Shown here piece by piece: positions 45,060 to 50,068 of a DNA stretch of 52,720 nucleotides. Source of the DNA: Bacillota bacterium. Lineage in GTDB: Bacteria > Bacillota > Clostridia > Peptostreptococcales > Anaerovoracaceae. The stretch covers positions 1 to 52,720 of the forward strand of contig JAUNIQ010000003.1 in the NCBI GenBank assembly GCA_030535275.1, written 5' to 3'. The position numbers and the translations under genes were made by a program. Position 1 is the stretch's first letter. Each line of letters begins with the position of its first letter. The notes below the pieces were generated by a model. That model was not told the origin of the DNA, made no database searches, and saw only the letters and a list, made by a program, of their open reading frames with translations.

Positions 45060-45090
45060 GGGGAATCGACTTGCTGTTGATTCCCTTTTT
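45060..45090 (+). terminator. Intrinsic terminator
   Basis: GGGGAATCGAC-TTGCT-GTTGATTCCCT-TTTT. Confidence 0.78.
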
Positions 45091-45107
45091 CGTGGGCGGG
45101 ATGTTTT

Positions 45108-45315
45108 TTAGACCAGATAACGGCTGACATGCCCATGGATTGTCATTTATGGTCTAAGTAGAAAAAACATTTAGACCACGAAACACCCAGAACTATTGAG
45201 ATATGGTGTCTTTGGTCACAGCGTGACAATGGAAACGGAGATTGGTGGGGTGATATTTGTTTTCTTTAGACCAGAAACGCCAAAAACCAAGGATTATAGC
45301 TAGCTTTTGGTCTAA
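45108..45315. repeat. Array of three 50-bp units, TTAGACCA-N34-TGGTC(TA/AC)A
   Basis: Units at 45108-45157, 45171-45220, 45266-45315; constant length, conserved inverted ends, variable self-complementary interiors. Confidence 0.85.
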
Positions 45316-45348
45316 TTATTTTGGAGATAACAGAAAGGGGGACTGGAC

Positions 45349-46335
45349 ATGCGGTTTTCGGAGATGATACTGGCAGCAACTGTGCAGGGTAATCTGAAAA
45401 AGAGCATTAAAAACCTGCATAATGAAATTAATATGTTAAACAGGAGCGATCATTTATTACATGCACAGGACGTAAACATGTATGCGGTAAACAACCAGGG
45501 AAGAATAATATTCAGGGAATACTCGAAGACAAGCAAGAACGAAAAACATCTGCGAAAAGATTCTGAGAGATTTTATATACTAGCCAGGCGGAAATATCTG
45601 GAGCTACTGATTAAACTTCTGGAGTACAGGCAGGACCCGAATTCGCAAACCATTAAGGAGCACGCGGAAAATGTTGACAGACTCGATAAGCTGATATCAA
45701 ATTTTGAAAAAGCCGGAGTTGATTTTACAAGAATAATGTTAACTGACGAGCAGTATGCCTGTACAAAGGCAAACTATCGAAGGAAAAGGATGGGTCAATC
45801 AATAAAGAAATACACTACCCCTGGAGGAGTTGCAACAAGGTCCAAATCCGAGCAGAAGCTGGGAACGAGATTTGAATATTTCGGGATACCGTATCGTTAT
45901 GAAATGAAAATAAGAGTAAATGTCGAAACGCTGGTAAACGCACTGGAGGAGGAACTGAGAAAAACAGGTTGGCTCAAGCGCACACTTTTTTATTATGACG
46001 GAAATGAATGCATCTGGAATGTGCCGGCAAAATATGCATGGATGAATGAACGCGGATCAATGTGGAAAAGCTATGATGCAAAGGCAAACGAAATCATCAT
46101 TTACCCCGACTTCATATTTCTTCTTCGTGACGGCAGCCTGCTGGTCTGGGAACACGAGGGAATGGCATCAGATTTCAGGTACAGATGCAATGCGTCCGAA
46201 AGAATATTCGTGCTGCGGGAAACAGGAACAGTGGCGGAGAACAATCTGGTGTTTTCATTTGAACGGGACATTAACGACGAAAAGGAGCTGGACAGGATGA
46301 TAATGACCCACCTGATTCCGCGGATACTGTTCTGA
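45349..46335 (+). CDS. Uncharacterised protein with C-terminal PD-(D/E)xK / Vsr-DUF559-like nuclease fold
   Basis: TRSKSE, GIPYRYE, IYPDF, VWEHEG motif spacing; helical N-terminus; codon style looks different from neighbours. Confidence 0.7.
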   Translation: MRFSEMILAATVQGNLKKSIKNLHNEINMLNRSDHLLHAQDVNMYAVNNQGRIIFREYSKTSKNEKHLRKDSERFYILARRKYLELLIKLLEYRQDPNSQTIKEHAENVDRLDKLISNFEKAGVDFTRIMLTDEQYACTKANYRRKRMGQSIKKYTTPGGVATRSKSEQKLGTRFEYFGIPYRYEMKIRVNVETLVNALEEELRKTGWLKRTLFYYDGNECIWNVPAKYAWMNERGSMWKSYDAKANEIIIYPDFIFLLRDGSLLVWEHEGMASDFRYRCNASERIFVLRETGTVAENNLVFSFERDINDEKELDRMIMTHLIPRILF

Positions 46336-46389
46336 GCGACTATGCGAAGGCACTATTCTAAGAACCGCAAAATGTGTTATACTAATGCC

Positions 46390-49826: not shown

Positions 49827-49856
49827 AAGGTGCTGAATTATTTCAGCACCTTTTTT
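49827..49856. terminator. Terminator overlapping the 3' end of the convergent XRE gene
   Basis: AAGGTGCTGAA-TTAT-TTCAGCACCTT-TTTT. Confidence 0.8.
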
Positions 49857-50068
49857 ATTATGGGTTGGGAGTTGCTGGTTCGCCCAAGAATGTAATCTGT
49901 GGTCGTGTTGTAAAGATCGGCAAGGCGAATTACGGGCTCATCAGGGATGGTGCGGGTGCCTTTCTCGTATCTGCGGTAAACCTCGCGCTGTATTCCCAGA
50001 TAATAAGCCACGTATTCCTGAGTATAATCGTTGTCCAGTCTTAAATGTTCTATCCTTATATACTGCAT
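49838..50068 (-). CDS. Small XRE-family HTH regulator
   Basis: LRLDNDYTQEYVAYYLGIQREVYRRYEKG, TTDYILGRT; SD AAGGAG. Confidence 0.9.
   Translation of the reverse strand: MQYIRIEHLRLDNDYTQEYVAYYLGIQREVYRRYEKGTRTIPDEPVIRLADLYNTTTDYILGRTSNSQPIIKKVLK

Follow-up and report, generated by a model that had tools for sequence, protein, structure and literature searches.

Phased arrays of inverted half-sites beside a Clostridia family of predicted Vsr-like nucleases: candidate duplex docking sites in a REP/RAYT-like repeat-enzyme system

Just upstream of an unannotated gene in a Clostridia genome (GCA_030535275.1; here G000) lie three short units with complementary ends and differing interiors, and the question raised by this locus is what such units do and whether they belong to the gene beside them. 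A sequence-only reading of the window (the whole 52,720-nucleotide stretch analyzed here) had taken them for partners of an encoded nuclease, acting as processed small RNAs, as single-stranded DNA (ssDNA) hairpin substrates of a REP/RAYT-like element, or as multi-site operators. A motif scan recovered the three units of exactly 50 bp that it had described, of the form TTAGACCA-N34-TGGTCTAA, with 0, 2, and 0 mismatches (Table 1); 0.11 would be expected by chance, and three units were reached in none of 100 shuffles. The array does end 33 bases before the ATG of a 328-aa open reading frame (ORF), and the interiors do differ, the three being 26 to 47% identical pairwise in either orientation. Absent from the earlier reading was the helical spacing: unit starts lie 63 and 95 bp apart, equivalent to 6.0 and 9.0 helical turns, and the arm centers of a unit are 42 bp apart, or 4.0 turns.

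Table 1. Features of the window locus and of the related dispersed arrays
Feature	Position	Strand	Basis or remark
Terminator-like hairpin (intrinsic type)	45060..45091	+	3' of the upstream PC4/YdbC-type gene; left neighbor of the inserted array and gene
Unit 1, inverted half-site pair	45108..45157	.	Motif scan
Unit 2	45171..45220	.	Starts 63 bp (6 turns) past the start of unit 1; the mismatches lie in the right arm
Unit 3	45266..45315	.	Starts 95 bp (9 turns) past the start of unit 2
Purine-rich RBS-like stretch	45334..45341	+	Read from sequence
RSKSE-family ORF P0001, predicted homodimeric Vsr/EDxHD-like nuclease	45349..46335	+	Sequence, AlphaFold model, dimer prediction
Variable N-terminal module, residues 1-73 (helix, three-stranded sheet)	45349..45568	+	Co-change with half-site; putative specificity domain; breakpoint 45569
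Nuclease-fold domain, residues 154-327	45808..46329	+	E168, D254, E268, H269, G271; clade-specific insert ~186-250
-10-like element of the downstream nucleoside-kinase gene, right neighbor of the insert	46378..46383	+	Read by eye
Four-unit TTCTATA-N34-TATAGAA arrays, seven and a partial copy at a contig end	G000 C15:7025, C67:11632, C76:33984, C106:10547, C114:9, C153:872 and 2872, C23:47

The further claim that each interior extends the stem with pairing of its own did not survive. The window units fold as hairpins via their complementary ends, and when these ends were held fixed and the interiors shuffled, we found no more added pairing than expected by chance (z of -0.5, -1.2, and +0.6 as DNA and of -0.3, -0.9, and +0.7 as RNA). 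The window array had no match in phages or plasmids, its interiors gave only chance matches of 12 to 14 bases against their own genome, and an Rfam search of the locus returned no match, introns included. Among the sequencing runs listed, none that held the locus was an RNA run, which has no bearing on expression. Within this 1.74-Mb, 85% complete genome, the window motif was found at this locus only, and TAGACCA-N34-TGGTCTA occurred in 1 of 77 genomes of the genus, which was the window's own; the half-site specificity of the window has not spread beyond its locus. We also tried the shorter doublet GACCA-N34-TGGTC as a marker of the family and rejected it: none of its 48 GTDB loci adjoined a family gene (best E, 0.6), so the end word is not a family-wide marker, and the five loci inspected were tandem or coding repeats.

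The ORF carries the motifs that had been ascribed to it, RSKSE (residues 164 to 168), RYE (183 to 185), PDF (253 to 255), and WEHEG (267 to 271). The AlphaFold model of P0001 (pLDDT 92) consists of an N-terminal helix, a three-stranded sheet, long helices, and then a nuclease-like domain. The C-terminal fold aligned with I-Bth0305I (Z 9.6, rmsd 2.9, 96 residues), NGO0050 (8.5), TnsA (8.2), and Vsr (7.5), scores that are only modestly above those of unrelated models and that leave a modest margin over other PD-(D/E)XK folds. E168, D254, E268, and G271 were invariant in 135 of 135 loci and H269 was present in 127. The predicted Vsr/EDxHD-like fold and the invariant acidic residues together favor the Vsr- or restriction-like nuclease pattern suggested earlier. 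A homodimer was predicted with a score of 0.62, the best control scoring 0.01; of the structures used for calibration, 20 of 30 solved homodimers and 1 of 23 single chains attained this mark. Agreement between runs was 79% of contacts or better, pLDDT was 83 or higher, and the interface was almost wholly formed by residues 194 to 234 and 270 to 320; this pass may echo likeness to solved Vsr-like dimers, including I-Bth0305I.

The rest of the protein resembles little that is cataloged. Foldseek returned no match at an E value of 0.001 for either the whole model or the N-terminal model. The N-terminal module had no structural relative above Z 4.2 and no Pfam family covering more than 1 of 75 members; since it has no clear structural relative, the DNA-binding role that we propose for it is drawn from co-variation. 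Searches of P0001 gave no informative Pfam or NCBIfam family and no Y1_Tnp or Nop Pfam match, and the Nop fold was absent among the best 50 fold matches listed. DUF6788 turned up solely as a precomputed match, for one homologue, and in 14% of a single Atlas cluster.

A profile search placed P0001 in a family of 2,996 clusters at 50% identity (E values up to 1e-30). Of 36 genus genomes, 34 had matches, at most 17 apiece, and so did 15 of 251 genomes in a class-level search; a close homologue carries the NCBI label Clostridia, and G000 itself holds six family paralogues that are 25 to 38% identical. A word scan of viral contigs and of metagenome contigs found no relatives, and the protein of one paralogue type, C153, had no match in plasmids; one weak match, a distant family gene, lay in an unverified 4.2-kb phage record (L327, MT839528.1:431-1042). 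P0001 thus has thousands of unannotated relatives among Clostridia proteins, a family that is apparently undescribed: the literature available to us, partly in excerpt, yielded no published description of the family or its arrays, and the supplement of some large survey could list the family.

We then asked how often family genes have arrays, using a motif-blind detector of recurring inverted 6-mers at a fixed gap within 500 bp of a gene. Arrays were present at 41 of 138 family loci, six duplicate loci having been dropped, versus 1 of 250 control genes of this genome, the one being the window locus. With 17 of 28 further loci, the total was 58 of 166, in support of a gene family with cognate repeat units. 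At the other 108 of 166 loci, any array was below threshold. Because the detector misses degenerate arrays, as it did at L189 and L042, these counts are floors; most loci are still negative. Half-sites are 6 to 8 bp and specific to each protein, with related words in sister proteins; the length of the units (~35 to 41 or 47 to 50 bp) goes by clade. In one instance, half-site TTCTATAA is paired across a gap of 22 bases in one clade and of 32 bases in another (L019 and the C153 locus of G000), a difference of one helical turn.

Arrays occur on either side of a gene. Where both flanks were available (119 loci), 24 loci had the array upstream and 16 had it downstream, and some family genes were flanked on both sides; arrays began 0 to 113 bp past the stop codon in 18 flanks, and elsewhere lay as far as 277 bp ahead of the ATG. 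In type III toxin-antitoxin loci of the ToxIN kind, a short array of near-identical direct repeats, followed by a terminator, precedes the nuclease gene. The window likewise has a short repeat array just 5' of a nuclease gene, but its units are divergent inverted pairs, the terminator comes before the array, and arrays in the family also lie downstream. The same placement bears on the possibility that the units are operators or architectural sites, with a protein whose main task would be to bend DNA and thereby regulate its own gene and those operons that carry gene-less arrays. The window array, so close to its ATG and with a weak promoter-like match overlapping unit 1, would suit such a role; the downstream and distant arrays would not, and promoter matches overall (6, versus 2.9 expected) are weak.

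If protein binds the units as duplex, their spacing might follow the helix. Distances between pairs had a best period of 10.54 bp (R = 0.74, n = 86), which was exceeded by none of 1,000 jittered sets, and 79 of the 86 lay within 2 bp of a multiple of 10.45. The distances were unique per flank and came from 61 flanks; kin among them are not independent, yet dozens of different words obey the rule. In held-out distances, R was 0.86 (n = 45). Moreover, the interiors of 60 units belonging to one paralogue were nearly all A/T at columns 2, 12, 23, and 33, with G+C-richer columns between, so that the A/T-only columns were 10 to 11 bp apart; an A/T rhythm of ~10 bp is the pattern expected of DNA bent round protein. 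Both phasing and rhythm would also fit the nucleoprotein complex of the operator alternative, against which stand the invariant acidic residues and the fact that no common theme was seen among the neighbors of gene-less arrays. Operators are thus improbable as the main function and unlikely to be the whole story.

These features also bear on the sequence-only proposal of processed small RNAs, as guide or antitoxin, or of hairpin substrates in ssDNA like those of REP/RAYT and Ssn/SRM. Complementary ends and hairpin folding are what it would predict, Ssn genes are flanked by hairpin repeats (excerpts of PMC11893778), and 212 family units did fold slightly better than with shuffled interiors (mean z of -0.5, median of -0.26, 19% in the 5% tail), an excess that we ascribe to symmetric A/T tracts. 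However, helical phasing and an A/T rhythm have no role in a single strand, the window interiors add no pairing, arrays lie on both sides of genes, and Rfam, phage, and plasmid matches are lacking. Interior identity between arrays ranged from 0.14 to 1.0: units of young arrays are tandem copies, nearly identical in their interiors, and those of old arrays have drifted, half-sites and spacing being kept meanwhile, which makes the interiors unlike acquired guides or spacers. We therefore consider RNA or ssDNA function very unlikely and find it highly probable that the arrays are duplex DNA sites for the cognate protein.

To see what distinguishes one half-site from another, we compared syntenic loci. 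The orthologue of the window gene in a relative, G322 (L189, G322:C5:30150-30997), has three units of 49 to 50 bp spaced by 62 to 63 and 95 bp, as in the window. Its half-site is a different word, TTCGGTTA/TTGGATAA, with three matches, all at that locus, and none in G000; the terminator-like hairpin is kept in this locus, and the array is not. Nucleotide identity between G000 and G322 was 73 to 100% in the flanks, 30 to 55% across the array and first codons, and 93 to 100% over most of the rest. At the protein level, residues 1 to 72 were ~40% identical and residues 73 to 185 were 94 to 98% identical. Contigs from runs of two studies diverge from the window at 45569 into G322-type letters and may be of the same lineage as G322. 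In a second pair (L044 and L042), flanks and the nuclease part were 87 to 98% identical and the array with the first 290 nt was mostly 33 to 62% identical; both have four units at 73 to 74 bp, with differing words. In the clade of this pair, three proteins with TGCCAC sites have one sheet sequence in common, and it differs from that of two proteins with TTCTATA sites.

By alignment, then, the array and the N-terminal domain differ together in two syntenic orthologue pairs in which the nuclease part is 87 to 100% identical and the spacing is kept. The proposed check on whether end sequences co-vary with protein clade accordingly came out in favor of cognate units, with related words in sister proteins and a half-site that tracks the N-terminal module. 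That the arrays are decayed tandem repeats or chance patterns unrelated to the protein is extremely improbable: some arrays are plain tandem duplications, but the family enrichment and this co-variation contradict such an origin, as do the chance expectation, the phasing, and the gene-bound dispersal described below. Taken together, these results suggest that a homodimeric nuclease docks on the arrays as double-stranded DNA, recognizing the half-sites through its N-terminal module, and that the two form a REP/RAYT-like repeat-enzyme system, a reading that we regard as probable. Counting against it are the many family loci at which no array passed the threshold, the mild family-wide excess of folding, and the modest Z values of the fold matches, as well as two further observations. 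The G322 orthologue is frameshifted near codons 219 to 235, with its three units still present, and two distant paralogues in G000 (C101 and C169, 26% identical) have in common the core GACCA-N34-TGGTC and a 158-bp interval.

The C169 array was also a candidate site for the window's own protein. This is weakened by G322: its C169 units are letter-identical, yet the counterpart of the window gene there uses another half-site, so the C169 array appears independent of the window's protein. Between this locus (L248, G000:C169:2400-4300) and L271, a 1.9-kb tract spanning the paralogue, the array, and a neighbor gene is 95 to 100% identical, with one flank at 77 to 96%, suggesting a recent transfer between two species.

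A blind scan of G000 found eight arrays, the window's and seven of the type beside the C153 paralogue (Table 1), six of them without a family gene. The gene-less C153-type arrays mostly fill gaps between ordinary genes and in housekeeping operons. Taking G000 and G322 together, all 15 C153-type arrays had all four units, spaced by 71 to 72, 61, and 71 to 73 bp. TTCTATA-N34-TATAGAA pairs numbered 23 in G000 and 29 in G322, with 1 stray elsewhere among 77 genus genomes and 3 control hits, and these two were the only genomes of the 77 with a close copy of the C153 gene (81%; next, 49%). Gene-less arrays are thus confined to genomes with the matching gene, bar one stray match, and the seven C153-type arrays of G000, with a fixed 72/61/72 spacing and unrelated interiors, are the best substrate set for testing the family. 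Other words are likewise scattered through the genomes they belong to (11 and 15 pairs in G322 and G023, 16 in G006, and 6 in G019), none of them in G000. Non-orthologous C153-type arrays shared no sequence beyond composition in a position-matched test of whole-array copying (0.368 versus 0.365), although they have the same geometry, which weighs against active spreading. At the edge of one gene-less array in G322, half-site-like words have undergone a 21- to 22-bp tandem expansion (L297:720-870, G322:C22).

Arrays and genes also come and go between relatives. Of seven gene-less C153-type arrays in G322, five were in the same place in G000, one was absent, and one could not be assigned; two G322 family genes were missing at the matching G000 sites. 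The window site was examined in 28 other loci of the genus, 26 of which had a PC4-type gene beside a kinase gene with no family gene (3 reversed). The window insert sits between the terminator and the kinase promoter, intergenic between intact genes, and in several empty alleles the -10-like element directly follows the terminator. Empty sites showed neither a target duplication nor a terminal repeat, and this too weighs against active spreading, though the test is weak at ~80% genome identity. An insertion sequence or MITE was considered and rejected, given paralogues only 25 to 38% identical and empty sites without terminal repeats or target duplication by that same weak test.

A further alternative is addiction or defense, with the arrays acting as a DNA sponge that holds an otherwise toxic nuclease, freed on loss or degradation of the locus or chromosome, and with paralogue-specific words insulating the copies. 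Of 33 members, 32 had a C-terminal domain that matched the tail of PADLOC candidate PDC-S68, and in 7 it matched HEAT_CxxC_PDDEXK; retention of half-sites and spacing while interiors drift, along with the many family matches per genome, would be in keeping with a sponge. The PADLOC match, however, is one of a shared domain only, many family loci have no detectable array, and arrays persist beside a frameshifted gene; the window locus lies between housekeeping genes and the gene-less arrays lie in gaps of housekeeping operons. We consider a sponge unlikely. A helicase-like ORF in G000 (C115:414-1842) carries a domain with the same nuclease motifs and is like the 1221-position PADLOC model PDC-S68.

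How does the docking-site reading compare with known systems, as described in the portions of the cited papers available to us? RAYTs are HUH tyrosine transposases acting on ssDNA hairpins (PMC3116915, 10.1101/2021.07.10.451892, PMC3733652). As in REP/REPIN-RAYT systems, an enzyme gene is flanked by its own inverted-pair repeats of a paralogue-specific type, gene-less extragenic copies exist (here for paralogues, not for the window motif), and presence varies between relatives. In contrast, the fold here is Vsr/EDxHD-like with E..D..EHxG rather than HUH (Y1), only 6- to 8-bp half-sites and spacing are kept in helically phased arrays, interiors do not pair into an extended hairpin, and copy numbers are low (0 to 7 gene-less arrays). 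Of the REP/RAYT-like element envisaged at the outset, the genome ecology is therefore supported, for some paralogues, and the ssDNA hairpin substrate is not. Ssn enzymes, of the GIY-YIG type, are small monomers with a single domain, and they bind and cut nothing but ssDNA hairpins (PMC11893778); their NTS/SRM repeats likewise flank the nuclease gene, form many enzyme-repeat pairs, and are also dispersed, whereas here a 328-aa two-domain protein of another fold, predicted to dimerize, is paired with repeats bearing duplex signatures.

I-Bth0305I, the best C-terminal fold match, is an intron-encoded homodimer joined via its nuclease domains, with N-terminal DNA-binding NUMOD arms, a ~60-bp footprint, and specificity from the central 14 bp, and it leaves its own allele uncut (PMC3239194). 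P0001 shares the predicted dimerization through nuclease domains with this EDxHD homing endonuclease, but its conserved bases are at the distal ends, its sites are arrayed beside the gene, and its locus is intergenic between intact genes with no Rfam intron match. The region corresponding to the NUMOD/HTH arms of EDxHD enzymes is modeled as a three-stranded sheet plus a helix (best Z, 4.2). TIGR-Tas systems, which require a Nop domain and box C/D motifs (PMC12045711), resemble the window in having fixed-length units of variable content beside the gene of a dimeric protein (here, a predicted dimer); in the family, nearly every locus has end words of its own, and a Vsr-like nuclease is the domain that we found. 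The defining features of REP/RAYT, Ssn/SRM, I-Bth0305I, and TIGR-Tas each failed in part, and the likeness is one of genome ecology for REP/RAYT and Ssn and of build for I-Bth0305I. The system is real and of the repeat-plus-dedicated-nuclease kind.

In the mechanism that we propose, the predicted dimer would be joined via its nuclease domains, so that each of the two N-terminal modules could extend to a half-site of its own, the two sites being 3 or 4 turns apart. Several dimers might stack along the same face of a bent duplex. If an array were now and then nicked or broken, repair through recombination or slippage would copy and amplify units and would exchange the cassette of array and N terminus. 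By analogy with what RAYTs are thought to do for REPs, it is about an even chance that the enzyme's cuts seed, amplify, or exchange arrays. The complete picture, a natural TALEN-like dimeric nuclease whose two arms read 6- to 8-bp half-sites 3 or 4 turns apart, assembling in phase on bent arrays, spreading through genomes, and swapping a ~73-residue module with its array as a cassette, is put forward tentatively, as possible rather than probable.

If this is true, the thousands of family clusters would be a natural library of matched reader-site pairs, assigning to thousands of unannotated Clostridia proteins a candidate DNA target that can be read from each member's genome. The joint swap of module and array would offer naturally matched pairs from which to decipher a protein-DNA code. 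A dimeric enzyme recognizing a split 12- to 16-bp site would be a rare cutter with exchangeable specificity. Alongside REP/RAYT and Ssn, which are built on hairpins, the system would stand as a helically phased counterpart built on duplex DNA, in a class for which we found no such repeats in the literature.

Two neighboring genes were recorded in passing. At one family locus (L010), the ORF that comes next downstream of the array may encode an Rpn/YhgA-type PD-(D/E)XK protein, which its start resembles. In the window, a lone 76-aa HTH_3 gene (49838-50068, minus strand) sits just 5' of the S10 ribosomal operon.
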